From the NCBI GenBank assembly GCA_016182185.1, contig JACOXU010000001.1:15700-79699 (forward strand): a DNA stretch of 64,000 bases, written 5' to 3'. The notes under the pieces were generated by a model. It had not been told where the DNA came from and searched no databases. It saw only the letters and a program-made list of their open reading frames with translations. Below, in pieces: positions 15,261 to 44,552 of this stretch; the stretch's first letter is position 1; every line of letters starts with the position of its first letter. This DNA is from Candidatus Levyibacteriota bacterium (lineage in GTDB: Bacteria > Patescibacteriota > Microgenomatia > Levybacterales > UBA12049). The translations under genes and the position numbers were made by a program.

Positions 15261-15321
15261 GAATACTAATCATGGTTACATATTTGAGTAAAGATGTCAA
15301 GCTTTTAAGCCTGAAGTTTTG

Positions 15322-15393
15322 AGCGGGAGACGGGTATCGCACCCGCGACCTTCTCGTTGGCAACGAGACGTTCTACTGCTGAACTACTCCCGC
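15322..15393 (-). tRNA. tRNA-Gly (anticodon GCC), non-canonical D/T loops
   Basis: Reverse complement GCGGGAGTAGTTCAGCAGTAGAACGTCTCGTTGCCAACGAGAAGGTCGCGGGTGCGATACCCGTCTCCCGCT. The D-loop AGCAGTA has no GG. The T-loop TGCGATA reads UGC where TΨC is expected. Confidence 0.8.
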
Positions 15394-15410
15394 GCGTAAA
15401 TAATTTACTG

Positions 15411-15483
15411 TGCCGAGGGTCAGAGTCGAACTGACATAGCCTGTTCTTCAGACAGGTGCCGTGACCACCTTGGCTACCTCGGC
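15411..15483 (-). tRNA. tRNA-Phe (anticodon GAA)
   Basis: Reverse complement GCCGAGGTAGCCAAGGTGGTCACGGCACCTGTCTGAAGAACAGG...TTCGACT...CCTCGGCA. Confidence 0.9.
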
Positions 15484-15487
15484 TTTG

Positions 15488-15561
15488 TGGACTCCAGAGG
15501 GTTCGAACCTCTGACCTCCTCGGTGTAAACGAGGCGCTCTGACCAGCTGAGCTAGGAGTCC
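15488..15561 (-). tRNA. tRNA-Val (anticodon TAC)
   Basis: Reverse complement GGACTCCTAGCTCAGCTGGTCAGAGCGCCTCGTTTACACCGAGGAGGTCAGAGGTTCGAACCCTCTGGAGTCCA. Confidence 0.9.
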
Positions 15562-15600
15562 AAATAGCTTGCCCTGAGTGAGCAAAGCGAATCGAATGGG

Positions 15601-15687
15601 TGCCGAGGACAGGACTTGAACCTGCACGCCTTTTTTAAGGGCACAAGAACCTCAATCTTGCGTGTATACCAATTTCACCACCTCGGC
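15601..15687 (-). tRNA. tRNA-Leu (anticodon GAG)
   Basis: Reverse complement GCCGAGGTGGTGAAATTGGTATACACGCAAGATTGAGGTTCTTG plus a long variable arm, then GCAGGTTCAAGTCCTGTCCTCGGCA. Confidence 0.85.
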
Positions 15688-15724
15688 TTTTTGGATTATG
15701 ATTATATCAAAATCCTTAAGAATG

Positions 15725-15808
15725 TGCTCTGGGAGAGACTCGAACTCTCACGTTCTTGCGAACACTAGCTTCTGAAGCTAGCCTGTCTGCCAATTTCAGC
15801 ACCAGAGC
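15725..15808 (-). tRNA. tRNA-Leu (anticodon CAG)
   Basis: Reverse complement GCTCTGGTGCTGAAATTGGCAGACAGGCTAGCTTCAGAAGCTAG plus a long variable arm, then GAGAGTTCGAGTCTCTCCCAGAGCA. Confidence 0.85.
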
Positions 15809-21895: not shown

Positions 21896-24283
21896 CTATT
21901 TTTTACTCCTTACATTGTGTCCACCGAACTCATGACGTAAAGCCGAGACAACCTGACCGGTATATGAGGGTTTTCCTTGAGATTTTTTTCTAAACTCGAC
22001 TGCCCCCTCAATAATTTCTACTGGTACGTCCATTTCTCTTGCTGTTTCAACAGTCCATTTCCCTTCGCCGCTTTGAGATACTTTTCCAGAACAACATTCT
22101 TGGGTATTTAGATCATCGCCAAACTTGGCATACGCATCTTTAAGCCATCCGACAAGACGAGAAGTAATAACCGAACCGTGATTGTAAAGATCGGCAACGG
22201 AATACAAATCAAGTGAAAAAGGAGACTTTTTAAGAATCTCAAATCCTTCACCAATTGACTGCATCATACCGTACTCGATCCCGTTATGTACCATTTTTAC
22301 GAAATGTCCAGCGCTGGCATTGCCCATATAGCCGTATCCATCTTTAATCGATAAATCTCGGAATAAAGGCTCATGTCTTTCATAAAGTTCTTTTTTACCT
22401 CCAACCATAATACAAGCACCATTGAGCGCACCATCCGGACCACCTGAAACTCCAACGTCCAAGAAATTAATTCCACTTTTGTCTAGGTCTTTTGAGCGAC
22501 GGATAGAGTCTTTATAAGGTGAATTACCACCGTCTATAATAGTGTCTCCTTTTTCAAGAAGAGGTACAAGCTCGTTTAAAACTTCGTCAACTGCCTGGTA
22601 AGATGCCATTAGCCAAATTGTGCGGGGGTTTTTAAGTTTTTCAACCAGTTCTTCCAGAGAATGGGTGCCAAGAATCCCTTCAGACTCATAAACCTTGGTT
22701 ACCTCGTAAGTCCTGTTATAACCGTACACCTTCCATCCTTTTGAAACTAATTGTTTCGCCAGATTTGCCCCCATTTTCCCAAGACCTATAATCCCTATTT
22801 CGTTTATTTTTACCTTTCCTTTTTTGATCATATTTCCCCTCGCGCTTTTATCTAATTCAGGGGCTGGAGTTGTGTCCGGTTTGTATTTCAAAAGCGGAGC
22901 AAGATTTTCCTTCCATGCCTCAATGACAGGGTCTGCAAATTTCCACTGAGCTTCAACTTCATTTTGAGAAATAAAAAGCGATTGATCAGCATGTATAGCG
23001 TGATAAAGAACCTTTGCGTATTCTTCAACATATTGTACTTTGGTTTGCTTTTTGTATAAAAAGAATGAAAAAGTTCTTTCCTCAAGCACTCGTTCAAACC
23101 CCGGTTTTTTAGTCCAGAAATGAATTACTATTTCATCCCTTGGTTCAAGGCGAAAAACTATACGATTTGGTGTATGCTTGCGGATTTCACACAAGTGGCA
23201 CACTTTTGGATGTTTTAATGTTAAGACAATTTCTTTTCGCACCTCTCCCATACGCTTACCTGCTGAAAGTGTTATCGATACACCTTTCCATTTTGGATGA
23301 AGAAGTTCAGTTTTAAGCGCAAAATATGTTTCCGTATTGGAGTTAGGTGTAACGTCTTGAATCTCTTTGTAGCCTTTATATTGCGCTCGGAATGTGTTCT
23401 TTGTTAAAATTTCCCTTCTCCACGGCAAAAGAGCCTCAAGGATTTTTGCTCTGGTTTTTCTGATGCCTGTTTCTTCTTCGTTTGATGGATATTCCATAGT
23501 GAGCGCAGCAAGCATTGAGAGAAGATGATTTTGTCCCACATCCCGCAAAGCTCCAACCTGATCATAAAAGCTTCCTCTATCTTCAACGCCTATTTTTTCA
23601 TGAAGCTGCAGATCAATGCTGTCGATGGTTGAATTATCCCAAATGTTCTCAAAGAGATTATTGGAAAATCGAAAATTTTCTATTCCCTGAACTATTTCTT
23701 TAAAAAGGTAGTGATCAATGCGGTAAATTTGCTCTTCCTTAAAATATGAAGAGAGAAGTGTCTGAAGCTTTCTTGCCGTTGCAAGATTGGTACCAAACGG
23801 TTTTTCAATAAGAATTCTGCTCCAGCCGAGTTTTCCTCCACAAGGGATGTTTAATTTCACTGCTGCAAGGTTTTTGAAAATCAAATCATAATTTATTGGC
23901 GGAACTGCCAGATAAAAAAGCTTATTAGCACAAATTCCCCATAAATTTTCTGTTTCGCTAATTTTGTTGACTAGAGCCTGATATGCTTTTTCATCTTCAA
24001 AAGTGCCATTCTGATAAGAAAAGGTCACAAAAAATTTCGAGAATTTCTCGCTTGTTACGTTTTCCCCGCTGCGTTTTTTAACCGAATCGAAAACATAGTC
24101 TTTAAATTCTTGAGCAGAAAAATCTCTTCTTGAAAAGCCTATAACGGAAATGTTATCGGGCAAAAGGTTCTGCTCGAAGAGGTGCCAGAGAGAAGGAATA
24201 ATTTTTTTTGCCGCCAGGTCTCCCGTTACGCCAAATATTACAAGAATTGTCGGTATTTCTTTTGATATTTCCTTTGATTCCAT
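21896..24283 (-). CDS. fused glucose-6-phosphate 1-dehydrogenase / 6-phosphogluconate dehydrogenase (decarboxylating)
   Basis: N-terminal half: G6PD motifs GVTGDLAAKKIIPSL (dinucleotide-binding) and RIDHYLFKE (G6PD signature RIDHYLGKE). C-terminal ~300 aa: 6PGDH motifs IGIIGLGKMGANLA, GGNSPYKDSIRR, GVSGGPDGALNG, GHFVKMVHNGIEYG, GEGKWT. Single uninterrupted ORF of 808 aa; the start is probably the Met at MESKEIS. Confidence 0.85.
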   Translation of the reverse strand: MESKEISKEIPTILVIFGVTGDLAAKKIIPSLWHLFEQNLLPDNISVIGFSRRDFSAQEFKDYVFDSVKKRSGENVTSEKFSKFFVTFSYQNGTFEDEKAYQALVNKISETENLWGICANKLFYLAVPPINYDLIFKNLAAVKLNIPCGGKLGWSRILIEKPFGTNLATARKLQTLLSSYFKEEQIYRIDHYLFKEIVQGIENFRFSNNLFENIWDNSTIDSIDLQLHEKIGVEDRGSFYDQVGALRDVGQNHLLSMLAALTMEYPSNEEETGIRKTRAKILEALLPWRREILTKNTFRAQYKGYKEIQDVTPNSNTETYFALKTELLHPKWKGVSITLSAGKRMGEVRKEIVLTLKHPKVCHLCEIRKHTPNRIVFRLEPRDEIVIHFWTKKPGFERVLEERTFSFFLYKKQTKVQYVEEYAKVLYHAIHADQSLFISQNEVEAQWKFADPVIEAWKENLAPLLKYKPDTTPAPELDKSARGNMIKKGKVKINEIGIIGLGKMGANLAKQLVSKGWKVYGYNRTYEVTKVYESEGILGTHSLEELVEKLKNPRTIWLMASYQAVDEVLNELVPLLEKGDTIIDGGNSPYKDSIRRSKDLDKSGINFLDVGVSGGPDGALNGACIMVGGKKELYERHEPLFRDLSIKDGYGYMGNASAGHFVKMVHNGIEYGMMQSIGEGFEILKKSPFSLDLYSVADLYNHGSVITSRLVGWLKDAYAKFGDDLNTQECCSGKVSQSGEGKWTVETAREMDVPVEIIEGAVEFRKKSQGKPSYTGQVVSALRHEFGGHNVRSKK

Positions 24284-24288
24284 AATTA

Positions 24289-25638
24289 TTATTCGATTGC
24301 AAAAAATGCCCTTTGTAACCATTCTGGTAAAGCTGGGTGAATATAAACAGAATTTGTAATTGCTTTTACAGTTCCATTTGCCTTCATGGCAACAATTACT
24401 TCATGAATTAGGGTAGATGCTTCATGACCTACGATATGAGCTCCAAGAATTTTTTCTCCATTCTTATCAGTTAGAACTTTTGCGAGTCCATTTTCTTGTA
24501 ATGCTCCACCCATACCGGTATCTTTGAGCTCTGCTCTCCCTACTTTATAAGCTGTACCTTCTTTTTTAAGCTCTTGCTCTGTTTTACCAACTCCACCAAC
24601 CTGAGGAGATGAAAAAACCGCATGACCTATTGCAAAGGGATTAAATGGTACTTTTTTATCAGTAAAAGCGTTTCTAATTGAAAATCCAACTTGGTCATTG
24701 GCGGTATGTCGAAACGGCAAGATACCAAGTATATCCCCAAACGCCCAGATACCATCAACATTTGTCTCAAGGTACTCATTAACCTTAATATACCCATTGT
24801 CATTCACCTCAACTCCTGTTGTCTTAACATCTAAGATGTCGGTATTGGGAACTCTGCCAGTAACAACCAGCAATTGATCACTCTCAAGTTTTCTTTCACT
24901 GTCTTTTAAGGTAATAATGAAATTGCCGTTTTGGTAGGAAACCGACTCTGCCTGTGTATTAAAGAGAATTTCATATTTTTTAGAAAACTTCTTGGTGAAC
25001 CATTGGGCTATTTCTTCATCTTCATCACTCAACATGAGATTTCCCCTGACCAAAATTGTAATTTTAGTTCCTAAAGCTCCATAAAAATGTGCAAGCTCTG
25101 CTGCTATATAACCGCCGCCTATAATTATTAAATGTTTTGGTTGTTTCTCAAGCCTTAATGCTTTTGTACTATCTAGAAATGGTGTATTTTTCAAACCCGG
25201 AATTGGGGGTATGGAAGGCCTGGTGCCTCCGACAATAAATACTTTATCAGCCTCAATCTGACCATCTCCTACCTGCATTTGTTTTGGACCAATAAACTTA
25301 CCGCGCATTTTATAGAGGATAGGGTTTCCGTTTTCTCTGACAGACTTTTCAATACCGGCCGAATCAGTATCTACCACCTCAGAGACTCGTTTTACGATCG
25401 ATGCAAAATCTATGCTTTCTATCTTGCTTTTAATCCCAAATTTTCCGCTATTTTTAATAGCTTCAGCAACATCCGATGAGTGGATCAACATCTTTGAGGG
25501 TATGCAACCTCGATTTAGACACGTTCCACCCAGCGGGCCTTCTTCGACTATTGCAACAGACATTTCTTTTTCTGCAGCAAATGATGCTACTTCGAGTCCG
25601 GCTCCTGATCCCACAACTAAAACATCAAACTTTTTCAT
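24289..25638 (-). CDS. class I flavoprotein pyridine nucleotide-disulfide oxidoreductase (glutathione reductase / Lpd-like)
   Basis: FAD-binding GSGAGL; redox-active GGTCLNRGCIPSK; a second Rossmann GGGYIAAEL with a VRG element; a C-terminal dimerisation domain with HPALPE. Confidence 0.85.
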   Translation of the reverse strand: MKKFDVLVVGSGAGLEVASFAAEKEMSVAIVEEGPLGGTCLNRGCIPSKMLIHSSDVAEAIKNSGKFGIKSKIESIDFASIVKRVSEVVDTDSAGIEKSVRENGNPILYKMRGKFIGPKQMQVGDGQIEADKVFIVGGTRPSIPPIPGLKNTPFLDSTKALRLEKQPKHLIIIGGGYIAAELAHFYGALGTKITILVRGNLMLSDEDEEIAQWFTKKFSKKYEILFNTQAESVSYQNGNFIITLKDSERKLESDQLLVVTGRVPNTDILDVKTTGVEVNDNGYIKVNEYLETNVDGIWAFGDILGILPFRHTANDQVGFSIRNAFTDKKVPFNPFAIGHAVFSSPQVGGVGKTEQELKKEGTAYKVGRAELKDTGMGGALQENGLAKVLTDKNGEKILGAHIVGHEASTLIHEVIVAMKANGTVKAITNSVYIHPALPEWLQRAFFAIE

Positions 25639-25675: not shown

Positions 25676-25876
25676 TTAACTGCTCGTACTGTGTTGTTGT
25701 CCATGTGTTGCTAAATCTTGTGGAGATTTTGCTTTCATGCCGCATTTAGAGCATATTATCGAATGTTCTTCTTGCTCATCTTTATTACTGTGCATTTGTT
25801 TTGCGTGGGAATCCATTTCATCTTGAGAATCAAACTGACCTCCGCACATAGGACATTTTAATTTATTGCTATCCAT
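25676..25876 (-). CDS. small protein with two C2H2-type zinc-finger-like motifs (66 aa)
   Basis: CPMCGGQFDSQDEMDSHAKQMH and CSKCGMKAKSPQDLATHGQQH both fit C-x2-C-x12-H-x3/4-H. A strong GGAGGTGA RBS lies 8 nt upstream. Confidence 0.6.
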   Translation of the reverse strand: MDSNKLKCPMCGGQFDSQDEMDSHAKQMHSNKDEQEEHSIICSKCGMKAKSPQDLATHGQQHSTSS

Positions 25877-25917: not shown

Positions 25918-26166
25918 TTATAAACCTAGCACTTTATCTAAAGCTTCTTTATTAAATCCTAAAATCGCAACTTCCTTTCCATCGTCTTTTACAATATGTG
26001 TGCAGGGTACTCCCATAGATTTGCAAATATGCATTGCCTCTGCTGCCTTATCTGGATTATAGTCAAGAACTATATCCTCAAAAGAAATATTCTTCTCTTT
26101 TAAGTAGCTCTTCAGCATATGACAATAGGGACAAGCTGTTGTCGAGTAAACTTTTATTTTAGCCAT
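25918..26166 (-). CDS. glutaredoxin (CPYC active site)
   Basis: KVYSTTACPYCHMLKSYL is a classic Grx CPYC motif and fold; about 82 aa starting from the MAKIKVY ATG. The ORF-track start at 26175 is a GTG. Confidence 0.8.
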   Translation of the reverse strand: MAKIKVYSTTACPYCHMLKSYLKEKNISFEDIVLDYNPDKAAEAMHICKSMGVPCTHIVKDDGKEVAILGFNKEALDKVLGL

Positions 26167-26461
26167 TTCTATCACCTGCCTTCATTTTATCCTTATGCAT
26201 TATTATTAGATTTTTGTTTGCGTCAAGCGCCTTTTTCAGCTCTTCATTTGAAGGCTCAACAAGAACCTCGCCATTAGGAAACAAAATAGTCGGAATCGAC
26301 TGCATTCCGCGATTTATCTCTTCAACTTCTGCTGCTGCACTTGGATCTTTATCTATATTTATGTATTCGTACATAACACCTCTTTGGTCAAGAAAGAATC
26401 TAGATCTATGGCAATCGGCGCACCAGTCAGCTCCATAAAATTTTATATGCTTCGAACTCAT
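26159..26461 (-). CDS. glutaredoxin-like / thioredoxin-fold protein (CADC active site)
   Basis: IKFYGADWCADCHRSRFFL is a Cx2C motif in the thioredoxin-fold position, with a later ...SIPTILFPNG cis-Pro-type region. Confidence 0.7.
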   Translation of the reverse strand: MSSKHIKFYGADWCADCHRSRFFLDQRGVMYEYINIDKDPSAAAEVEEINRGMQSIPTILFPNGEVLVEPSNEELKKALDANKNLIIMHKDKMKAGDRNG

Positions 26462-26493: not shown

Positions 26494-26646
26494 TTAATTG
26501 TGATTGTGATCTTGTTCACGGTTTTCATTTTTTTCTTTTTTATGACTTGGGTCAGTACAGTTTTTATCTGTACATTTCTCAATCACACCGATCGCCTTTC
26601 CCATTCTGCACATCGTACAATTATCGTGTTTTCCATGTCCCATCAT
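26494..26646 (-). CDS. unannotated 50-aa Cys/His-rich small protein
   Basis: Not in the ORF track because it is under 60 aa. A GGAGGTG RBS 7 nt upstream, then ATG ATG; translation MMGHGKHDNCTMCRMGKAIGVIEKCTDKNCTDPSHKKEKNENREQDHNHN (4 Cys, 5 His). It fills the gap between the CADC-Grx gene and the 117-aa membrane protein gene on the same strand. Confidence 0.45.
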   Translation of the reverse strand: MMGHGKHDNCTMCRMGKAIGVIEKCTDKNCTDPSHKKEKNENREQDHNHN

Positions 26647-26721
26647 ATAATTTCACCTCCTTATTTGTGGTTTAATCATACAAATAATTTTATCTTTGTT
26701 CTGTCGCCCGGACGACATGTT

Positions 26722-27075
26722 TTATTTATTCTCTTTAATTATCTTACCGAGTCTAACAGGCATCATAATTAATGCAATCAAAATTCCAAAAAGTAGAACA
26801 AATATTCCGGTTAATATGTTACCAACTCCGACAAGTTTAAGTCTTAAAAGTTCCGATGGGTAATTTTGTATTTGTACTAACTGGGAGTTGAGTTCTGATC
26901 CTGTTTCTGCCGCGTCCCTGATTTCTTTACTTTGAATAAAGTATTCGGACTGAAGCACATGAAATTTTGCCTCCTCAACAGTTACTCTCTGATGCATTTG
27001 TATCCCAATTCCTGCAAATATAATACCTGCAATCATAAACACTGCCATCATTCCCATCATCATCGTCTTCATCAT
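26722..27075 (-). CDS. small membrane protein with a Met-rich N-terminus (117 aa)
   Basis: N-terminus MMKTMMMGMMAVFMIAGIIF; two TM helices (N- and C-terminal); GGAGGTGA RBS. Confidence 0.5.
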   Translation of the reverse strand: MMKTMMMGMMAVFMIAGIIFAGIGIQMHQRVTVEEAKFHVLQSEYFIQSKEIRDAAETGSELNSQLVQIQNYPSELLRLKLVGVGNILTGIFVLLFGILIALIMMPVRLGKIIKENK

Positions 27076-27089
27076 TTTTATCTCACCTC

Positions 27090-27710
27090 CTAAAATCCTA
27101 AGTTCTCTTTAATCAAAACTATCGTTATTCTTCCGGGTATCATTTCTTTGTTGATTATAAGGATTTTATTAACCCCACTTCGCATACCATAAGCTTTTTG
27201 TGCCCTCGCATCTTCGAGAGGATAGGAATATTCGTAAATTCTTCTTAAACCTTCTTGAAGGTTTTTAACAATTTTTTGCGTTCCTACTATAAAAATAACT
27301 TTTTCTGCGGAATAAACTTCTGTTGAAAGCTGGCTGCCTGTTGCCGATGCAATCAAAAGCTGTCCTTCCTCTGTTATAGCATGAACAGATCCCACTACAA
27401 ACTCAGGAGCGGCTCCAATCTTTGCCATCTCACGGCTTTGCGTGCTTCTATCCATTTTCATGAGTTTTTGCCTCACGGAATCATATTTCCCAGATTCGTT
27501 TATTTCCTTTGCAAGGCTTATAATTTCCCCAGTCCGGGACGTGGCGGTGAAAACTTCTGCTCCTGTTGGTAGCATTCCTAGAACTTCCTCTTTTGCCTCT
27601 TTGCCATTTTTAACAACGAGTGTTTTTATTCCGTTTGCTTCAAGTGCTTTTACGGCTTTTGCGATTCTCTGGTTATCGGCTAATTTATTAAAATTTTGAT
27701 TTGATTTCAT
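27090..27710 (-). CDS. LUD-domain (YkgG/LutC-like) protein, paralog
   Basis: SVHAITEEGQLLIASATGSQ...IFIVGTQKIV. Clearly homologous to 17928-18539. Confidence 0.65.
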   Translation of the reverse strand: MKSNQNFNKLADNQRIAKAVKALEANGIKTLVVKNGKEAKEEVLGMLPTGAEVFTATSRTGEIISLAKEINESGKYDSVRQKLMKMDRSTQSREMAKIGAAPEFVVGSVHAITEEGQLLIASATGSQLSTEVYSAEKVIFIVGTQKIVKNLQEGLRRIYEYSYPLEDARAQKAYGMRSGVNKILIINKEMIPGRITIVLIKENLGF

Positions 27711-27800: not shown

Positions 27801-29462
27801 TTAATTTGAGTAAAGTTCGGTATCCGGGTGGAACGCGGCCCAGGCAAACCAGAATAACCTGATGGGAATTATTTCTTCTTGGGTTTCAAGATTGATAGTT
27901 TTAATTTGTCCTGAATCAAGTTTTTCGAGTCGTAGGTTTATATCACCAATTTGATCCTCAATTATTTTTCGGTTGTCAAACACGCTTTCAGGATATGCTT
28001 TTGATAATCCATCCAGCTCAATCCCATAAACGACAGTCTTGATCTGAAGACTTTTATTTAATCCCTTTACTCCAAACAGTAGTTGGTCATCCTGCTCATA
28101 AGTGCCATAAGGATATTGGTCGTAATCCCTGCTGTGGTCTGTTTCCCGTGATAGAACTTGAGTATTAGGATGTTTTCGTTTCCATTCGCCCCATGTGGTT
28201 GTTACAATTGGTACCTGTTTTAGCTTTTCATTTCGACGGGCCGCTTCACCAACAATAGCCTCCCCTGTTATTTGTTGCCAGAGATTCCCTTCGTATCTGT
28301 CATACATAACAAGATCCGAATTATGCAGTTTTCCGGATACACCAAATTCCGTGATAACTCCGTCAACTTTTCTTTCAAATGCAAGAGCGGAACCGCAAAG
28401 CGGACAAAAAGTAATCGCAACTGGATCACCTGCAGCAATATCATTTACAATCTCATGCCAATTTAGGATTCGTTGAGGATAGGCTCGTTGTACCCCCATA
28501 TAATCAATTGCAAATACAACGTCATCATCCCGTAACCAACTAGCCTGCGTTGCTGATTCAAATTTAGGTTTATCAATCGATGGAATACAATCTTTTCCAC
28601 CAAAACAGCCTTGGAGCAAATCGCTTTTATCCACCTTAGCACCTGTGAAATCATTGGCGAGGGATACATCACGAACTACTGTTTCACCAGGTTTAGCTTT
28701 TTGCGTCTTTTTTCCACTTAAAGCCCTAAGTTGCTTGTCAATATTCACGCTTTTTTCAAACGTAGTTGCAAGCTGTGTCCATGAAGCAGGTAAATTTGCA
28801 AGCGTCCATGCCTGCAGTATTCTATCTGCTCCGGTCCATAAAAATAAAGCTGTGCCCAATATAATAATCCCAAAGATTTGTCTAATTTTTTGGTTGTTTG
28901 CTTTAACAAAACCAAGTCTTGCGGAAGCCGCGCGTCCGCCTTTTGCGATAAAATAGAGAGGAACGGCTGTTCCTAAAGCATAAGAAAATACTATTAAAAC
29001 AGATCCGAATGAGAGTGAATTTACTGCTGCGAGTGTTGCAACAGCCGCAACAACTGGACCAATACAGGGAGTCCACACAACTCCAAGACTTACACCTGTA
29101 ACAAGTCCCCCTCCGAATCCGCTACCTTGGTTTTGCACTGGACGGACTTGCCAGAAACGCTCAATTAGTATCAACGCCTTTTCCCAAATAATAGGAAAGA
29201 CCATGCTTAAACCAAAAATGACTAACAGTATTACAGCAATATTTCGAATTGTATCTGCAGGAATTCCAAAAACTTTTACAACTGTTGCAAGAAGAAGTGC
29301 GGCAATCGTAAAACTCACAACAAGCCCTATTATAACACCTCTTATTCGCCATATTTTTCCTTCAATTCCGCTTGCTAAAATAATGGGCAGAATGGGAAGA
29401 ACACATGGTGAAAAAACAGTTAAAACTCCTGACACAAATGCAATAGGTAAAAGCAAAAACAT
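27801..29462 (-). CDS. CcdA/DsbD-type thiol-disulfide transporter fused to a C-terminal DUF3179-like domain
   Basis: N-terminal ~240 aa: polytopic membrane domain with VFSPCVLPILP (CcdA/DsbD beta signature) and a second Cys (VWTPCIGP). C-terminal ~300 aa: ITFCPLCGS...FGVSGKL..DLVMYDR..GNLWQQ pattern typical of DUF3179. Confidence 0.75.
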   Translation of the reverse strand: MFLLLPIAFVSGVLTVFSPCVLPILPIILASGIEGKIWRIRGVIIGLVVSFTIAALLLATVVKVFGIPADTIRNIAVILLVIFGLSMVFPIIWEKALILIERFWQVRPVQNQGSGFGGGLVTGVSLGVVWTPCIGPVVAAVATLAAVNSLSFGSVLIVFSYALGTAVPLYFIAKGGRAASARLGFVKANNQKIRQIFGIIILGTALFLWTGADRILQAWTLANLPASWTQLATTFEKSVNIDKQLRALSGKKTQKAKPGETVVRDVSLANDFTGAKVDKSDLLQGCFGGKDCIPSIDKPKFESATQASWLRDDDVVFAIDYMGVQRAYPQRILNWHEIVNDIAAGDPVAITFCPLCGSALAFERKVDGVITEFGVSGKLHNSDLVMYDRYEGNLWQQITGEAIVGEAARRNEKLKQVPIVTTTWGEWKRKHPNTQVLSRETDHSRDYDQYPYGTYEQDDQLLFGVKGLNKSLQIKTVVYGIELDGLSKAYPESVFDNRKIIEDQIGDINLRLEKLDSGQIKTINLETQEEIIPIRLFWFAWAAFHPDTELYSN

Positions 29463-29463
29463 A

Positions 29464-29925
29464 TTAGTTTATTTGTGCAACTAAAGTATCAAAATCTCCG
29501 CCAATCCATCGTTTTATTTCGTTTCCCTGACTGTCAAGATAAACCATTGTATGCTGTTGTGCTATACCATACTTTTTCTTATTGAAGCTGTCGTGGTCGT
29601 AGTCAATCTTAAGTACTGTTAGGTTTTCGGGAAGCGATGCGCTTTTCTCTCTTAATTCTTTGTCTAAAGCAGAACATGTATTACACCATGCAGTTGCTGC
29701 AAAAAACAATACGGTATTTCCGTTTCCATATGCTTGCGTTAAGGTTCCTTCGGAATAATCAAAATAATGTGGGGAAATGGGTTGAAAATCAGCAAGTACT
29801 CTTTGCTGTGGGACTGTTTTATTTACAAAAAAATTATTAAAAAGAACTCCCGCAAAAATTACCCCCAGTACTATTATGGCAGTTGTAATTCCATTTAATT
29901 TCGTATTTTTTATTTTTAAAGTCAT
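29464..29925 (-). CDS. membrane-anchored thioredoxin-like protein (TlpA/ResA-like), WCNTC
   Basis: N-terminal TM anchor; Trx fold with active site WCNTC. Confidence 0.8.
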   Translation of the reverse strand: MTLKIKNTKLNGITTAIIVLGVIFAGVLFNNFFVNKTVPQQRVLADFQPISPHYFDYSEGTLTQAYGNGNTVLFFAATAWCNTCSALDKELREKSASLPENLTVLKIDYDHDSFNKKKYGIAQQHTMVYLDSQGNEIKRWIGGDFDTLVAQIN

Positions 29926-30365
29926 ATTAGTTGTTGTTTTATTGTTTCAATGCCGCCACCTATCCAATTATGTACTTCGTTCCCTTCGCTATCGACTTGT
30001 ACAAGTGTATGCTGTTGAACAATATTATATTTTTGTTTTAGCTCTTTTTCGGTATCGTAGTTTACCTGTAAAATAGTCACATCGTCAGGCAATTCACCAC
30101 TTCTTTCTTTAAGTTCCTCATCAAGGACTTTGCATGTTGGACACCATGAAGCCCAAAAATAGAGAACGGGGCGACCATTTGTCTTTCCAGCGGCAAGGTT
30201 CTCTTCTGAGTATTTAAGATAATGTGGGGCGATTTCTCCAGAATTGTCTTGAGTAGCTGTTATACTTCTTGTAGTATCTTTGGTCTTAGATTGCGTAAGA
30301 AAAACACCTCCTAAAATCACAATAAGAAGTATTATCACAATAGCAATTATTTTCCCGATCTTCAT
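29922..30365 (-). CDS. membrane-anchored thioredoxin-like protein (TlpA/ResA-like), WCPTC
   Basis: N-terminal TM anchor; active site WCPTC. Paralog of 29464-29925. Confidence 0.8.
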   Translation of the reverse strand: MKIGKIIAIVIILLIVILGGVFLTQSKTKDTTRSITATQDNSGEIAPHYLKYSEENLAAGKTNGRPVLYFWASWCPTCKVLDEELKERSGELPDDVTILQVNYDTEKELKQKYNIVQQHTLVQVDSEGNEVHNWIGGGIETIKQQLI

Positions 30366-30445
30366 ACTTTAAGCATACAGTAAACACTCTTCGGTATACC
30401 ACTCATAAAATTCTCAAAATTCTAGAATACTTCTGAAAGGGTTTG

Positions 30446-30847
30446 TTAATTAAGATTCGTAAGCAATGCTTCTACCCCTTTACCTCCGCTATTCCATCTC
30501 GTAATTTCCTTTCCCTGACTATCAACTTGAATAAATGTATCCTGCATGGTGATAGCATACTTTTTCTTCATGGCAGAATCATTATCATAGTCGACTTTAA
30601 GAATAGTTACATCTCCCGGAACTTCATCAAAATTTGCCTTAAAATTCCTGTCTGCTGCCTGACATGAAGGACACCAGGCAAGCGCCGCAAAGAAAAGAAC
30701 AGCACAACCATTGTTTGCCGTTGCTTTGGAAAGAGAATTTGATGAATAGTCAACATAGCGAGTTGCTATCGCAGAATCATTGGAGCCCATTGCAGAATCG
30801 TCTTCCATCATTTCCCCAGCTTCCATAAATGATCCGTCAGTCCACAT
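30446..30847 (-). CDS. thioredoxin-like protein (TlpA-like paralog), WCPSC, no N-terminal anchor
   Basis: Trx domain homologous to the two upstream paralogs (…VLFFAALAWCPSC…) but with an acidic 25-aa N-terminus instead of a TM helix. There is no in-frame upstream start before a stop at 30908. Confidence 0.6.
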   Translation of the reverse strand: MWTDGSFMEAGEMMEDDSAMGSNDSAIATRYVDYSSNSLSKATANNGCAVLFFAALAWCPSCQAADRNFKANFDEVPGDVTILKVDYDNDSAMKKKYAITMQDTFIQVDSQGKEITRWNSGGKGVEALLTNLN

Positions 30848-31394: not shown

Positions 31395-32057
31395 TTAAGA
31401 GGACAGTTGCTCTAGGTGTGAGGAATTAAACTGGAGCATTTTTTTTGAACGCTTAATATGCCCCTTTTTCTCTAGTTGGTTAATAAGGGTTGTTACAGTT
31501 TGTCGTGAGATGCCAAGCATCTGGGCAAGTTCTTCATGTGTAAATTTATCTGATATCTCCATATAATCTTCAGATTTTGGCTTACCTAGGCTCAAAAGTA
31601 ACTTAACTAATCTTTGAAATGCATTATCGGCGGCCACTGAGGACATTCGCTTCTCAACTGAAAGAAGTCTATTAAAAAGCTGCTTCATTAATTTTTCAGA
31701 TAGGTCCGGATACTGAGAGATTAGTGTAAAAAAATTGTTTTTTTCAAGAGAGCACACATATGAATCAACCGTTGCCTCCACAAATATCTCAGATGAACCC
31801 TCAGAGCCTAAATCTCCAAATAAACTTCCCGGACGCAGCCTTTCTATTATCGTCTTTTTACCTGATGGGGTGAGCTGAAACAATTCCACTTGGCCAGTTT
31901 TTACAAGAAATACTTTATCTCTGTCTCCAGGTTCAAAAATTACCTCTCTTTTACTATATTCCTTCATAGCAAACAGAGACTCTATTTTATGAAGTTTATC
32001 TTTCGCTAAGTCTTTAAACAAATCGAGCTGTTGAATGTACCAAAGCTTCTTGTTCAT
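31395..32057 (-). CDS. Crp/Fnr-family transcriptional regulator
   Basis: N-terminal cNMP-binding-like beta-roll; C-terminal HTH (HEELAQMLGISRQTVTTLINQLEKKGHI). Confidence 0.85.
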   Translation of the reverse strand: MNKKLWYIQQLDLFKDLAKDKLHKIESLFAMKEYSKREVIFEPGDRDKVFLVKTGQVELFQLTPSGKKTIIERLRPGSLFGDLGSEGSSEIFVEATVDSYVCSLEKNNFFTLISQYPDLSEKLMKQLFNRLLSVEKRMSSVAADNAFQRLVKLLLSLGKPKSEDYMEISDKFTHEELAQMLGISRQTVTTLINQLEKKGHIKRSKKMLQFNSSHLEQLSS

Positions 32058-37299: not shown

Positions 37300-37692
37300 A
37301 ACGATTTTTATCGAACTCGTGGATTTTAGCCTCAAAAAATTGCTAAAATTTACAAAAATATAATCCTATAACGTTATCCCCTAACGGGAATCGAACTAGC
37401 CACAAACTTATTATTTCTTCTCTTGATCAGGTTATTCAAAATCTCCCATCCACTTTGACCCATAAAATTCTTGCATGATTGCACAAGCCAATAAATACAC
37501 AACTTCTTGTATATCTTTTAGCTCATCTTCCGTAGCATTAGGATAGTATTTCTTGATTATTTCCAATGGTAACACAATAAATGCTCACCTCCTTTAGCAG
37601 AAGTTGAAAATTTAGCATATAAAGGATACTTACGCTGGGAAGAGTGATTATAAAAATCTTTTAAATAGGCAAGAGCTAGGGGTAATTATTTT

Positions 37693-39066
37693 TCAGACAC
37701 AGCAACTTAATTTAGAAATGTCCTTAGTAAAGGACAAGGCGGCAATTTTAATAGCCTCCGAAAGCGTCGGGAACATAGGTAAGGAATTTACCACGTCATC
37801 AATGGTATTTTTATTTTTAACTAACGACATCGCTTGAGCAATTAAATCACCTGCATTAGGAGCTAAAATATGCACCCCAAGAATTACTTTTGTCTCAGGG
37901 TGGATAACCATTTTTATTAAACCTTCCGTTCTGCCAATAATAAGAGCCTTTGGAACGTCTGCAAAAGAAACAGTCCGGCAAAGACACCTTCCTAACTGTT
38001 TCATTTCTTGTTCTTCAGTAAGTCCTACACCTGCGAGCTGTGGGTCAGTAAAGATAGTCCAAGGGACAGTATTGTAATCAATACTATTTTGAGTACCTTT
38101 AAGTGCATTTTCAGCAGCAAGCGTTCCCTCTCTGCCTGCTGTTGGTTCTTCTCTAATGGGTAGATTTGTCACATCGCCCACCGAAAAAATGTGTGGTTGA
38201 GATGATTGAAATTGAGGACTTACTTTTATCGCCTGTTTATCATCAATTTCTATATTAGCTTTATCAAGACCTAAGCCTTGTGTCTCATCGGCTGATACTT
38301 GTTCTTCTTTATTAGCGGTTATATAAGTCAGGACTTTCTTACCTCCTTCTTTACGTGCAGATTTAACTTGTACATTTGTTTTAATAGTTATGCCCTCTTT
38401 GGTAAGTATTTCGGCCAAACGATCAGTAAGTTCTCTTTCTGCCGGAGGGAAAATAGAGACATTCTTTTGTAAAACAGTTATTTTTGTTCCAAAACGAGAA
38501 TACATTTGTGCAAACTCCAATCCCAAAGGCCCCGCACCAACTACAATAAGTTCTTTGGGAAGATTTTTAATCTGTAAAGCCTCAATATGAGTCAAGTATC
38601 CAACTTCTTGTATATTCTCAATCGGTGGTACAGTTGCGGTCGATCCGGCTGCAATAATAAATTTCTTTGCTTGATATTTTTGTCCATTAACTTCAATCTC
38701 GTTAGGGGAAACAAAACTAGCTTTACCTTCTATGTGGGTAACATTTTCTAAACCATTTAAGACTTTCTCATACTTTTCAGCTCTAAGCTTTGCTACTAAA
38801 TCGAGTTCATGCTGAACAACTTGACTAAAATTAAAGTTTTTAACTTCTATATCAATCCCTGGAATATTGTGACTTTTAGCAAGATGCATTACTTCTCCTG
38901 CCCAAAGAAGCGTTTTAGAAGGAACACAACCAACGTTTACACAGGTTCCGCCTAGAGGAAGTCCCTGATTAACCATCAAAGTTTTTGCTCCAAGCTCATT
39001 GGCTTTAATAGCGGAAGCAAAAGCCCCTGCGCCTCCTCCGATAATGATTAAATCGTACTCATTCAT
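37693..39066 (-). CDS. mercuric reductase-like flavoprotein (MerA core without the N-terminal HMA domain)
   Basis: FAD motif IIGGGAGA; redox-active LGGTCVNVGCVPSK, identical to the MerA active-site signature; the C-terminus ends in ...KLSCCV, a Cys pair as in MerA ...QLSCCAG. Confidence 0.75.
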   Translation of the reverse strand: MNEYDLIIIGGGAGAFASAIKANELGAKTLMVNQGLPLGGTCVNVGCVPSKTLLWAGEVMHLAKSHNIPGIDIEVKNFNFSQVVQHELDLVAKLRAEKYEKVLNGLENVTHIEGKASFVSPNEIEVNGQKYQAKKFIIAAGSTATVPPIENIQEVGYLTHIEALQIKNLPKELIVVGAGPLGLEFAQMYSRFGTKITVLQKNVSIFPPAERELTDRLAEILTKEGITIKTNVQVKSARKEGGKKVLTYITANKEEQVSADETQGLGLDKANIEIDDKQAIKVSPQFQSSQPHIFSVGDVTNLPIREEPTAGREGTLAAENALKGTQNSIDYNTVPWTIFTDPQLAGVGLTEEQEMKQLGRCLCRTVSFADVPKALIIGRTEGLIKMVIHPETKVILGVHILAPNAGDLIAQAMSLVKNKNTIDDVVNSLPMFPTLSEAIKIAALSFTKDISKLSCCV

Positions 39067-39129
39067 ATTGTCTTAATTTATGCTCGACAAGGACAACATG
39101 GCCCCATAATTTCTCACCCCCTTTAGCAT

Positions 39130-40602
39130 TTATACCCCACATCCTGCTCCACCTTTTGTTTGGGGGATAAGATTTGGTATCTTGGCAATTTCTGTCTGTA
39201 CATTCTTGCCCCAGCCGCTACCTGTTGAGTAATCAGTACCCAACGCCACTTTTGGATCAACTTTGTCCCACTCTATGTTTTTAACAACCTTAAAATACAG
39301 GGCTGTTTGAATATAATTTTGTGGGAACCAAGAGGAATTGAAGGCGAGAGCCTCTTTGTAAAGTTCATCCTCGGAGAGTCCCTGTGATGCGCCAAGTTGC
39401 AGAAGTCCTAATAACGCTGATCCATGATTGCAGTCCTGAAAGAAAGTAGAGTTATTGCAACAGGGACGATAGGTGTTTTTGGCAATTTGAGTGACTAAAG
39501 CTTCTTGCTCTGGTGTCAATTCAACTATTCTGAATTTATTGAAATACGCTCCGCCATTTTCTTCCTTTCCTATATTCCAACCCCCAGTTGAAGCAAAGTT
39601 AAAAAGAGATTTTCCATTAACAGGACTATCTTTATTTGTTGACATATAGTTTGATAGTCCTAATGCCCAAAGAAGGTTAACGTAAGTGTTAGCGTTTTCT
39701 CTGGTGAGAAGAATAGGCCTATATGAAGATTGACTTAATATATCTTTCAGCTCGGGAGGCAATCCTCCGCGTTCTTTATAAATTTCTTCAAATTTACCCT
39801 GGTCAATAACGCCATTTTGTACCAATTCTACGACGCTATCCCCTAAGAAAATTTTGCTTTGAAAACCTTGTGCTGGCAAAACTTTAGCTACAACCTCGTC
39901 ATAAACTTTGTTTCCTGTTGAAGAAATGTTAGAGGTATTTAGTTTATTGTCGTTTGAGTTAAGAAGTGCTGTCTTATTAAAGAAGCTGAAAATTATTGGA
40001 TCAGTCTTAAGCATATTCCAGCCAATAAGTATCAAAACAGCAACCAATGCTAAAGAGGCTATAAGATAAGGTTTATCTTTTGCTCGATATGAAGTAGGGC
40101 GGGGAATCGGGCAAGTTTCATCGCCGCAACTTAAAGATTTTAACTCTCTTGTTGTTAACCAGACAGGAAGCGCCATTAAGGCAAAAGAAAGTGATTTTAG
40201 TTCTAAACCTTGCAGGGGGAAAGCTGCCAGCCCTCCGGCAATGCCAATAGCGGATAAAAGAACAGAACCGCAGACTGGACAAGCAGAGGCCGCCACCCCT
40301 ACTAATGCTCCTAAACTGCTTCCGCCTTGAACTTTGAGTCTGGGCGGTCCAAATTTCCTCCAGCGATAAACAAATAATGAGGCGTTAACGCCAAAAAGGA
40401 CAATAGTACCAAAAGTAAGAAGGATATATGACCATAAGTACACAGGCTGACTTTTGGTGTTGTTGATAAGATTATAAATACTTGAATTAAGGCTTAAGCT
40501 CCAATAGAAGATAAGCAGTAGAAGTAGAGAAGCCACCAGCCCGATTGAACCGTAAAATAAAAAGGTCAATAATTTTTTCTTAAATCTGTTAATTCTTCTC
40601 AT
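39130..40602 (-). CDS. Cys-containing polytopic membrane protein with a large extracytoplasmic C-terminal domain (candidate metal-ion transporter)
   Basis: About 5 TM helices in the first 190 aa. One carries ACPVCG; a loop carries SCGDETCP. The ~300-aa hydrophilic C-terminal domain has a PCCNNSTFFQDCNHG motif and ends GGAGCGV. It lies in an operon with the ArsR and MerA-like genes. Confidence 0.55.
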   Translation of the reverse strand: MRRINRFKKKLLTFLFYGSIGLVASLLLLLIFYWSLSLNSSIYNLINNTKSQPVYLWSYILLTFGTIVLFGVNASLFVYRWRKFGPPRLKVQGGSSLGALVGVAASACPVCGSVLLSAIGIAGGLAAFPLQGLELKSLSFALMALPVWLTTRELKSLSCGDETCPIPRPTSYRAKDKPYLIASLALVAVLILIGWNMLKTDPIIFSFFNKTALLNSNDNKLNTSNISSTGNKVYDEVVAKVLPAQGFQSKIFLGDSVVELVQNGVIDQGKFEEIYKERGGLPPELKDILSQSSYRPILLTRENANTYVNLLWALGLSNYMSTNKDSPVNGKSLFNFASTGGWNIGKEENGGAYFNKFRIVELTPEQEALVTQIAKNTYRPCCNNSTFFQDCNHGSALLGLLQLGASQGLSEDELYKEALAFNSSWFPQNYIQTALYFKVVKNIEWDKVDPKVALGTDYSTGSGWGKNVQTEIAKIPNLIPQTKGGAGCGV

Positions 40603-40604
40603 AT

Positions 40605-41216
40605 TTATCTAGCGTGATGATGTTCGCTATCTCCGCCGCATCCATCAGATAAATTCCACACTTGGGTAACCTGTTGTCCAGTAAATTGGTAATTTTTAAT
40701 TAAGATTTTACCCAACCCTCCATAAACATTCCATCTCCAGCATTTACAGCAACAAGGACCTTTTTCATCAGAATTTTGCATGGCATAATCATAAGCTTCC
40801 TGTTCTTCTGTGGACAACTGAATACTGTCATAATCTGCCATTAACTTTTTGGCCAGCTTTGCCTCAATGTCATAAGGATCAGGCGGAATTTCAGCGATAT
40901 TTTGATATTTCTTCAATCCTTCAACCTGCTCGCTGTAGCGGTGCATACTCATGGGGCTACAACAAGAACCTTGCAAACGAGAATTATCTGGCATTGAAGT
41001 GATAGAATCACGAAATGCTCCCGAGCAGGAGGAATTACCATGTTTTGAGAGGTAATCAAATTTTGCAGCCAACGCATCGTTAACCAATCCCTTTGTTTCC
41101 TGTTGAGATGACTGCTTAAGAGAAAAATTAAATAGCGGCTTAGATGAGAAAAAATAAAAATAACCTGCAATAAAGGCTGAAATAATTAGTGCTAATACAA
41201 GTATCTTTTTATTCAT
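40605..41216 (-). CDS. secreted Cys/His-rich protein (203 aa)
   Basis: Signal/TM helix; Cys clusters NSSCSGAF, QGSCCSPMSMHRY, GPCCCKCWRW; C-terminus DGCGGDSEHHHAR. Confidence 0.5.
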   Translation of the reverse strand: MNKKILVLALIISAFIAGYFYFFSSKPLFNFSLKQSSQQETKGLVNDALAAKFDYLSKHGNSSCSGAFRDSITSMPDNSRLQGSCCSPMSMHRYSEQVEGLKKYQNIAEIPPDPYDIEAKLAKKLMADYDSIQLSTEEQEAYDYAMQNSDEKGPCCCKCWRWNVYGGLGKILIKNYQFTGQQVTQVWNLSDGCGGDSEHHHAR

Positions 41217-41532
41217 TGTTTTCTAATAATTGACTTTTAATGATCGAAGCAAATTTATTTTTACCTAAAGAATATAAAACTTGCTTTGCTTGCCTTCTAT
41301 TCTCAACCACTTGTATTTCTTTCAACTTCTTTAGGCTGTGGGATACTGTAGAAATTGGTAATCCAATAATTTCCGCCATCTCAGAAACTGTTAGTTCTGG
41401 ATGATGACAAAGAAGGTAGCAAATCCTCATTCTGGTGAGATCACCTGTTGTCCCAAACCTTTCAGCACATGCCTCAATTTTCTTGTTGTCTTGAAGTTCA
41501 TCCCGAAGCACTTTTTTCTTCCTCATTTGCAT
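41209..41532 (-). CDS. ArsR/SmtB-family metalloregulator
   Basis: Winged HTH ...LTRMRICYLLCHHPELTVSEMAEIIGLPISTVSHSLKKLKEI...; CxxC-type (CYLLC) metal site in the alpha3 region. The start is probably the ATG (MQMRKKK); the ORF-track extension to 41577 uses TTG and would overlap the operator. Confidence 0.75.
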   Translation of the reverse strand: MQMRKKKVLRDELQDNKKIEACAERFGTTGDLTRMRICYLLCHHPELTVSEMAEIIGLPISTVSHSLKKLKEIQVVENRRQAKQVLYSLGKNKFASIIKSQLLENNE

Positions 41533-41542
41533 ATCTATACAA

Positions 41543-41579
41543 ATGATAGGAATTTGTTTTACTTTTGTCAATGACAAAA
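41543..41579 (-). promoter_or_regulatory. promoter with perfect 8-1-8 palindromic operator (TTTTGTCA-A-TGACAAAA) overlapping -35 TTGACA; -10 TATCAT
   Basis: Minus strand: TTGACA (plus 41566-41571), a 17-nt spacer, then TATCAT (plus 41543-41548), about 10 nt before the ArsR ATG. The palindrome spans 41563-41579. Confidence 0.5.
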
Positions 41580-44479: not shown

Positions 44480-44552
44480 GGTGGATGTAGCTCAACAGTA
44501 GAGCGCCAGGTTGTGGACCTGGAGGTCGCGGGGGCAGCACCCGTCTTCCACC
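44480..44552 (+). tRNA. tRNA-His-like (anticodon GTG) with degenerate D/T loops
   Basis: G(-1) GTGGATG TA GCTC-AACAGTA-GAGC G CCAGG-TTGTGGA-CCTGG AGGTC GCGGG-GGCAGCA-CCCGT CTTCCAC C. Canonical His anticodon arm, G-1 and C73 are present. The D-loop lacks GG, the T-loop lacks TΨC, and acceptor pair 6:67 is U-U. Confidence 0.45.

Follow-up and report, generated by a model that had tools for sequence, protein, structure and literature searches.

We report that a 50-aa mini-protein rich in Cys and His, here called PEP, is encoded on the minus strand of a 64,000-nt stretch of a Candidatus Levyibacteriota genome (contig JACOXU010000001.1, positions 15,700 to 79,699; hereafter the window), where it lies within a block of redox genes. 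It is a real small gene under purifying selection, with a conserved Shine-Dalgarno (SD) sequence, a conserved pattern of potential metal ligands and a conserved neighbourhood. The family that it represents is probably metal-binding, as judged from its alignment, and may provide a zinc-thiolate centre for the thioredoxin-fold proteins encoded around it.

A small gene with a conserved start and reading frame

The open reading frame (ORF), its ribosome-binding site and the ORF opposite to it are as follows (pN/pS, ratio of nonsynonymous to synonymous change).

26494..26646, minus strand: coding sequence of PEP, the 50-aa Cys/His mini-protein (MMGHGKHDNCTMCRMGKAIGVIEKCTDKNCTDPSHKKEKNENREQDHNHN), supported by the ORF itself, its homologues, a pN/pS of 0.17 and motif statistics
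26654..26660, minus strand: Shine-Dalgarno sequence GGAGGTG, 7 nt upstream of the PEP ATG
26500..26772, plus strand: antisense ORF of 90 aa, not a gene; in nearly all relatives the antisense frames are interrupted by stops, and antisense pN/pS is 0.3-1.6

An earlier note on this DNA had drawn attention to a 50-aa minus-strand ORF preceded by GGAGGTG 7 nt before ATGATG and fitted into gaps of 32 and 75 nt between its neighbours. Both the ORF and its translation were found as described there. On the minus strand, GGAGGTG (26660-26654) is followed by the spacer AAATTAT (26653-26647) and by ATGATG from 26646, and the gene is separated by 75 nt from the stop of the upstream 117-aa gene and by 32 nt from the start of the downstream 100-aa gene, all three being co-directional. 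The description of the gene as unannotated applies to an ORF track with a 60-aa cut-off and fails for public assemblies, where gene callers predict the ORF; it is therefore an effect of that cut-off and not a universal omission. For example, the identical 50-aa product is called as a gene on three Logan contigs of public assemblies (L001-L003), and relatives carry the NCBI name 'hypothetical protein'. A scan for promoters and terminators around the PEP gene gave nothing convincing. Within the 75-nt spacer (26647-26721, minus strand) a small hairpin, TGTCGTCCGGGCGACA, is present at 26702-26717 alongside the SD sequence.

The ribosome-binding site is itself distinctive. The heptamer GGAGGTG occurs eight times in the window (G+C content 36.6%), always on the minus strand and never on the plus strand, against about 2.6 occurrences expected from our own estimate based on composition, and six of the eight copies stand 4-10 nt before the start codon of an ORF. 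In most cases the gene that follows the heptamer is small (47-117 aa) and belongs to the redox block. Among related loci, for which SD and gene-overlap counts refer to 39 distinct loci and neighbourhood counts to 34 non-redundant ones, GGAGG was found no more than 20 nt from the start codon in 35 of 39, both where intergenic DNA precedes PEP and where the preceding DNA is the end of another gene.

A query with PEP against 5.8 billion proteins returned 20 homologues of 46-68 aa with 55-80% identity, and a profile search raised this number to 63 (40-83 aa). Scans of genomes and metagenomes gave 15 and 22 PEP loci, and a HMMER search run exhaustively over 1.84 billion cluster representatives yielded 11 representatives and nothing more distant. 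In all, about 80 distinct relatives of 45-83 aa are known. The named host genomes are Candidatus Levybacteria/Levyibacteriota, Daviesbacteria, Microgenomates and metagenome-assembled genomes labelled 'Patescibacteria group', many of them from groundwater, and several automated co-assembly records that bear PEP are labelled 'uncultured Gammaproteobacteria'. As far as sampled, the family is limited to Levybacteria, Daviesbacteria and Microgenomates of the Patescibacteria, or Candidate Phyla Radiation (CPR).

Selection on the reading frame was examined in 14 distinct loci that can be aligned without gaps over codons 1-38. In the PEP frame pS was 0.685 and pN 0.116, which gives the ratio of 0.17 listed above; the two shifted sense frames and two of the antisense frames gave 0.95-1.6, and the antisense frame that shares the wobble position gave 0.31. 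Variable sites fell at codon positions one, two and three in the numbers 18, 14 and 34, that is, mostly at the third. The earlier note had named loss of the frame, or conservation at the nucleotide level alone, as the outcome that would speak against a protein; the frame is instead conserved across relatives, and its proposal of a genuine small gene stands, with the frame kept in some 80 of them. Its dismissal of the antisense ORF at 26500-26772 was likewise borne out, as that frame is not conserved. Four to five related loci retain one antisense frame open across 270 nt, and elsewhere every antisense frame contains stops; the 90-aa antisense ORF is thus a chance product.

These data bear directly on the explanation that there is no functional protein here at all, and that the ORF arose by chance, is a regulatory leader peptide for the glutaredoxin gene, belongs to an RNA element or encodes the precursor of a ribosomally synthesised and post-translationally modified peptide (RiPP). 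Its shortness, the lack of a database family and the low-complexity tail would all suit such an origin. However, the low pN/pS over 38 codons, the concentration of variation at third positions and the retention of start, SD sequence and length in about 80 relatives speak for a protein, and Rfam matched only tRNAs in the window, none of them near the PEP site. A leader peptide is disfavoured because the gene downstream of PEP varies between loci: it may encode a glutaredoxin, a C2H2 mini-protein, an FAD reductase, a zf-UBP protein, an FMN reductase or a membrane protein. As for a RiPP precursor of the SCIFF or lanthipeptide kind, no radical-SAM, YcaO or lanthipeptide-type maturase was present in the neighbourhoods of the loci examined, and the conserved part of PEP is a core that begins at residue 1 and is followed by a variable tail. 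The non-protein explanation is therefore largely refuted, and we regard it as highly improbable.

A fixed pattern of potential metal ligands

The family is defined by the signature H-x2-H-[D/C/H]-x-C-x2-C-x11-[C/H]-x3/4-C, and 77 of 83 unique members fit H-x2-H-[D/C/H]-x-C-x2-C-x11-[C/H]. Across 63 aligned sequences C13 is invariant, and M2, H4, H7, C10, K17, G20 and C30 are each conserved in at least 90%. Position 8 is occupied by Asp in 38 members, Cys in 20 and His in 19, and by no other residue. Position 25 is Cys in 60 members, where it is followed by x4-C, and His in 17, where it is always followed by x3-C-x-C; H35 of a 'PSHKK' motif is nearly invariant among the Cys-type members. The window protein itself reads C10-x2-C13-x11-C25-x4-C30, so that the first of the two Cys pairs in the earlier note is correct and the second, given there as C-x5-C, is C-x4-C. 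It also has the 45-65-aa length, the SD-led start at M(M)GHGKH and the location in a cluster of thioredoxin (Trx), glutaredoxin (Grx) and CcdA genes that mark family members.

The conserved core thus comprises residues 1-38 and places about eight potential ligands at fixed spacing in about 35 residues. Beyond residue 38 the proteins end in a variable, charged tail rich in Lys, Glu, Asp, Asn and Gln. In the window protein this tail is His-rich (DHNHN); 32 members have at least two His in their tails, such as EHDHAHE or HGHDHVHG, and in four the tail ends in a Cys cluster (NCC, CDCC, CSCC or similar). Met is frequent and conserved as well (M1, M2, M12, M15 and M21). The window protein is hydrophilic (5.75 kDa; grand average of hydropathy -1.57; isoelectric point 7.7), contains four Cys in 50 aa and lacks a hydrophobic segment; it is therefore expected to be cytoplasmic. 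An AlphaFold2 model built with 63 sequences has a predicted local distance difference test score of 83 over residues 11-30, with a helix that begins at the CxxC.

Two features of this pattern suggest a metal site. Metal coordination is favoured over a structural disulfide because the two variable columns admit only ligand side chains, and because an obligatory disulfide, unlike a metal site, could not accommodate the exchange of Cys for His at position 25. The suggestion of a metal- or redox-active mini-protein in the earlier note is strengthened by these ligand-restricted columns, by the His- and Cys-bearing tails and by the occurrence of Trx, Grx, CcdA and disulfide reductase genes next to nearly all loci; the activity itself is predicted from sequence.

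A conserved thiol-redox neighbourhood

PEP is embedded in a long run of minus-strand genes, given here from the head of the cluster.

31395..32057, minus strand: Crp/Fnr-family regulator, 220 aa, cluster head, in a position conserved among loci
29464..30847, minus strand: three membrane-anchored/exported thioredoxin-like proteins (153, 147 and 133 aa)
27801..29462, minus strand: CcdA(DsbD_TM)-DUF3179 fusion, membrane thiol-reductant transporter, 553 aa; 17 of 34 loci, with plain CcdA in distant loci
27090..27710, minus strand: LUD-domain protein, 206 aa; in 8 of 34 loci
26722..27075, minus strand: upstream neighbour of PEP, 117 aa with two predicted transmembrane segments, of no known family; 6 of 34 loci have a homologue, placed variably within the cluster
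26159..26461, minus strand: downstream neighbour of PEP, mycoredoxin-like glutaredoxin (WCADC), 100 aa; Pfam Glutaredoxin 9e-12, TIGR02200 mycoredoxin 76 bits against a cut-off of 89.5
25918..26175, minus strand: YruB/NrdH-like glutaredoxin (CPYC), 85 aa, the Grx type that follows PEP in distant family members
25676..25876, minus strand: mini-protein with two C2H2 fingers, 66 aa; Pfam zf-C2H2_4 7.9e-8; in 17 of 34 loci
24289..25638, minus strand: disulfide reductase of class I (FAD/NAD(P)H), 449 aa, with the motif GGTCLNRGC and no CC at its C-terminus; similar to dihydrolipoyl dehydrogenase and mycothione reductase
21896..24322, minus strand: G6PD-6PGD fusion (NADPH supply), 808 aa; Pfam G6PD_N, G6PD_C and 6PGD on the homologue in L007/L008

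The related loci share this co-directional arrangement. Its first part consists of the Crp/Fnr regulator, two or three membrane-anchored Trx-like proteins and CcdA-DUF3179, optionally the LUD protein, the 117-aa membrane protein and c5 (a Trx-like protein of 103-110 aa with a CxxC), and then PEP; the second part brings the mycoredoxin-like Grx, optionally the YruB-like Grx, the C2H2 mini-protein, the 449-aa reductase and either the G6PD-6PGD fusion or a DUF1684 protein. The gene immediately upstream of PEP encodes c5 in 18 of 34 loci, and the one immediately downstream encodes the mycoredoxin-like Grx in 14. At least 15 loci have either a mycoredoxin-like or a YruB-like Grx downstream. Nearby, which we define as within 4.5 kb, an FAD disulfide reductase was found in 25 of 34 loci and CcdA in 17. 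Distant members of the family retain a minimal module of Crp, Trx, CcdA, PEP and an 83-aa CPYC Grx. Taken as a whole, the cluster encodes a complete path that starts with NADPH production and passes a flavoprotein disulfide reductase, Grx/Trx-like proteins and a membrane thiol-reductant transporter before it reaches exported Trx-like proteins.

In 20 of 39 loci the stop codon of the upstream ORF is the TGA inside the ATGATG of PEP, an ATGA overlap that indicates classic translational coupling to the upstream gene. Indeed, the invariant double Met of PEP is explained by this arrangement, since ATGATG carries the upstream TGA. In one locus (L050) the coupled upstream gene encodes a canonical WCGPC thioredoxin (TrxA).

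Several of the neighbours resist exact assignment. The 449-aa reductase scores below every equivalog cut-off, including those of the dihydrolipoyl dehydrogenase and mycothione reductase models, and the 117-aa membrane protein, which has a Met-rich N-terminus (MMKTMMMGMM), no Cys and highly conserved stretches such as QIQNYPSELLRLKLVGVGNILTGIF, has no match in Pfam or NCBIfam. Literature searches on DUF3179 with CcdA, on Patescibacteria with mycoredoxin and on small cysteine-rich proteins of CPR bacteria turned up nothing relevant. The G6PD-6PGD fusion directly follows the reductase gene with an overlap of 34 nt, and the same arrangement is seen in L007/L008.

A few members of the family depart from the usual gene organization. 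A metagenomic protein of 68 aa (P0007) is an in-frame fusion of PEP with the second finger of the 66-aa C2H2 mini-protein, which hints at a functional link between the two. In another metagenomic protein, of 76 aa (P0024), the N-terminus of c5 (MKGIRVCNGC…) and its C-terminal 'GG' are joined in frame to PEP; this protein, known from a single short contig, probably arose by internal deletion of c5. Two genomes encode both subtypes of PEP, L015 (at 3889 and 6001) and L026 (at 2982 and 4001). In both, the His-type protein (…EKHPxxCxC…) follows a 110-aa c5 with an extra N-terminal CxxC, and the Cys-type protein (…EKCTDKNC…) precedes the mycoredoxin-like Grx, suggesting that the subtypes have specific partners.

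A putative zinc-thiolate centre and its alternatives

We consider it about evenly balanced whether PEP is a zinc-thiolate redox centre or adaptor, with one or two Zn-type ions, for the neighbouring Trx-fold proteins. Under this proposal the core of about 35 residues would fold around one or two Zn-type ions held by H4, H7, D/C/H8, C10, C13, C/H25, C30 and usually H35, and the tail rich in Lys, Glu, Asp and His would be disordered, often supplying an extra His or Cys. The protein, soluble and cytoplasmic, would work with the Trx-fold proteins encoded on both sides of it. Reducing power would pass from the NADPH of the G6PD-6PGD fusion to the class I FAD disulfide reductase, then to the Grx/Trx-like proteins, to CcdA and finally to the exported Trx-like proteins. 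Reduced PEP would hold its metal, oxidation of the CxxC would release it, and the neighbouring Trx or Grx would re-reduce the protein. In function PEP would resemble the N-terminal zinc finger of thioredoxin-2, though as a chain of its own. We infer metal binding, the identity of the metal, the interaction with Trx-fold proteins and the redox switching from alignment and gene context.

Much of the same evidence could be read in terms of soft metals. In this explanation, which we judge unlikely, PEP would be a chaperone or sequestering peptide for Cu, Hg, Cd or Zn that buffers these ions in the cytoplasm or delivers them to an exporter or a detoxifying enzyme; the thiol-redox genes would serve to keep its ligand thiols reduced. 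The restriction of position 8 to Asp, Cys or His and of position 25 to Cys or His, the His- or Cys-rich tails and the abundance of conserved Met are what such a peptide might need, and the Met-rich N-terminus of the 117-aa membrane neighbour is in keeping with them. Moreover, ArsR/SmtB-type HTH_5 regulators occur in several loci, and a MerA-like reductase (GGTCVNVGCVPSK ... KLSCCV) adjoins PEP or lies near it in L015, L018 and L050. In the window the MerA-like gene is 11 kb away, in a mer-like operon.

37693..41577, minus strand: mer-like operon, about 11 kb from PEP
41209..41577, minus strand: ArsR/SmtB-type helix-turn-helix protein of this operon
40605..41216, minus strand: Cys-rich exported protein of this operon, 203 aa, with CCS and PCCCKC motifs and a C-terminal HHH
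39130..40602, minus strand: multi-Cys membrane protein of this operon, 490 aa
37693..39066, minus strand: core MerA-like reductase of this operon, ending in KLSCCV

Just downstream of the MerA-like gene there is a 47-aa ORF with a GTG start (37432-37575, minus strand), and a GGAGGTG at 37592 stands about 8 nt ahead of it.

What sets a soft-metal role back is the composition of the neighbourhood. Only a few loci have a MerA-like gene in the cluster, and the reductase that is constant there lacks the C-terminal CC; no metal-transporting ATPase or HMA-domain protein was found next to PEP in more than 34 loci; and the 117-aa membrane protein has no Cys and is restricted to 6 of 34 loci. The constant association is with Trx, Grx and CcdA and not with metal-resistance genes. 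For the same reasons (the missing C-terminal CC and the few clusters with MerA-like genes) we rejected mercury resistance as a role in its own right and retain it within the soft-metal explanation alone.

Several observations weigh against the zinc-thiolate proposal. The conserved Met, the His/Cys tails and the MerA-like and ArsR-type genes of some loci fit a soft-metal role about equally well. A search for c5 showed it to be absent from the 64-kb window, and it is missing from about 40% of loci, so that no one partner can be obligatory. In L024, the closest long relative (3600-4000 compared), c5 lies between the 117-aa membrane gene and PEP; as it is missing from the window, PEP starts there after the 75-nt spacer, which still carries the SD sequence. 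Furthermore, the neighbourhood is an association and not an interaction, and the AlphaFold2 model is only moderately confident and shows almost no regular structure besides its one helix.

A third explanation dispenses with the metal. PEP would then be a redox-active dithiol peptide, a thiol/disulfide carrier or dedicated substrate that links the flavoenzyme, the Grx/Trx-like proteins and CcdA. The C10-x2-C13 pair, at least 90% conserved, marks the N-terminal end of the helix in the model, as active sites do in Trx-fold proteins. In addition, PEP shows translational coupling with Trx-fold genes and has Grx and CcdA genes beside it, and the reductase is similar to enzymes whose substrates are low-molecular-weight disulfides, though it falls below all their family cut-offs. 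Yet 17 members have His in place of C25, and simple dithiol chemistry would not call on the conserved His4, His7 and D/C/H8; metal ligation accounts better for these features. We hold a metal-free dithiol peptide to be less likely still.

More speculative, and doubtful at best, is a broader proposal in which PEP would represent a new kind of redox cofactor-protein, a two-metal one with eight ligands or else a metal-free one, that serves as the dedicated relay of electrons or thiols in the cytoplasm for a self-contained pathway from NADPH to CcdA. The flavoenzyme, which resembles mycothione reductase, would reduce PEP directly, and PEP would act as a gene-encoded substitute for glutathione or mycothiol; as part of this proposal, the reduced CPR genomes that carry PEP may lack the synthesis of low-molecular-weight thiols.

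Comparison with known families and systems

Neither PEP nor its profile had a significant match in sequence searches of Pfam, NCBIfam and the PDB. Repeated weak matches were obtained with a single family, Pfam PF09889 (DUF2116, 'probable treble clef'), to which 14 of 21 members aligned, the best with an E-value of 0.0058. These alignments cover KH..C..C...C...C and the Lys/Glu-rich stretch after it, and score 10-12 bits against a gathering cut-off of 26.8; the window protein scores 10 bits (E 0.89). The Cys spacing differs between DUF2116 and PEP. When the family profile was aligned by hhalign with a synthetic DUF2116-type sequence that scored 93 bits to PF09889, 11 columns were aligned at a probability of 2%, a weak test. 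The same synthetic sequence, which is not a real member, has a hydrophobic C-terminal segment that PEP lacks, and it found no database relatives when used as a query. With sub-threshold bit scores and this 2% alignment to a synthetic sequence, we rejected membership of PEP in PF09889.

Zinc-thiolate redox centres are known from the N-terminal zinc finger of E. coli thioredoxin-2 (TrxC), from Hsp33 and from the ZAS motif of RsrA. Like the TrxC finger, PEP is a short Cys-rich, putatively metal-binding centre attached to a Trx-fold protein within a thiol system of the oxidative-stress type, the attachment being genetic in PEP (20 of 39 loci). Unlike it, PEP is a separate polypeptide whose second pair is C-x4-C or H-x3-C-x-C where TrxC has two CxxC pairs, and there is no sequence similarity. 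The thioredoxin-2 type, defined by two CxxC and an N-terminal fusion to a WCGPC thioredoxin, thus does not include PEP, a separate gene that is coupled genetically only. A ZAS anti-sigma factor was also rejected: its H-x3-C-x2-C differs from the H7-x2-C10-x2-C13 of PEP, and no sigma factor gene, which for a protein of the RsrA type would be an adjacent ECF gene, is among the neighbours in more than 34 loci.

In size (about 40-55 aa), in having four Cys/His ligands in two pairs and in a spacing close to that of bL36 (C-x2-C-x12-C-x4-H), PEP recalls rubredoxin and zinc-ribbon mini-proteins such as the ribosomal protein bL36. It differs from them in lacking CxxCG/CPxCG knuckles, in being near-neutral with an acidic/His tail and in having extra conserved His ligands. 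Neither rubredoxin (PF00301) nor bL36 (PF00444) gave a Pfam match at E <= 10; PEP has C-x2-C-x-M-G and C-x4-C motifs in place of those of the former, and its isoelectric point and x11 / x4-C spacing set it apart from the strongly basic, roughly 38-aa bL36. Similarly, HMA-type metallochaperones (CopZ/MerP, PF00403, with a GMxCxxC loop) were not matched in Pfam or NCBIfam, and a metallothionein is dismissed on the four Cys in 50 aa of the window protein.

At the level of the cluster, the nearest likeness is the mycoredoxin/mycothione reductase system of Actinobacteria, as the Grx downstream of PEP is matched best by mycoredoxin and the flavoenzyme scores to mycothione reductase. The cluster departs from that system in that all these scores are below the equivalog cut-offs and in its tie to CcdA-DUF3179 and exported Trx-like proteins. 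To our knowledge, no small Cys/His peptide belongs to the known mycothiol system. Because membership in a known family could not be established, PEP represents an undescribed small-protein family, of the familiar general kind of Cys/His metal-binding mini-proteins in redox operons.

Other features of the window

The window has 14 tRNAs according to ARAGORN and 15 according to Rfam, whose additional hit at 44481-44552 ARAGORN did not call. Five of the tRNA genes (Gly, Phe, Val, Leu and Leu) form a cluster at 15321-15808 on the minus strand.

Significance

Small proteins that lie below the cut-offs of gene calling or inspection are systematically overlooked, and PEP provides a clean and well-supported case from the CPR. 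It is a solid new small-protein family within an uncharacterised CPR thiol-redox system, with nothing so far that would astonish a specialist, and should PEP prove to be only a structural zinc mini-protein, it would be a routine addition to the catalogue. The redox physiology of the CPR is almost unknown. In this setting PEP marks a conserved, self-contained thiol-reducing cluster and brings into it a Cys/His component that had not been suspected, coupled in stoichiometry to a Trx-fold protein. If PEP is indeed a zinc-thiolate switch or a carrier of metal or thiols, it would reveal how such tiny anaerobes cope with oxidative stress or metal stress, and would help to find what the orphan reductase acts on.

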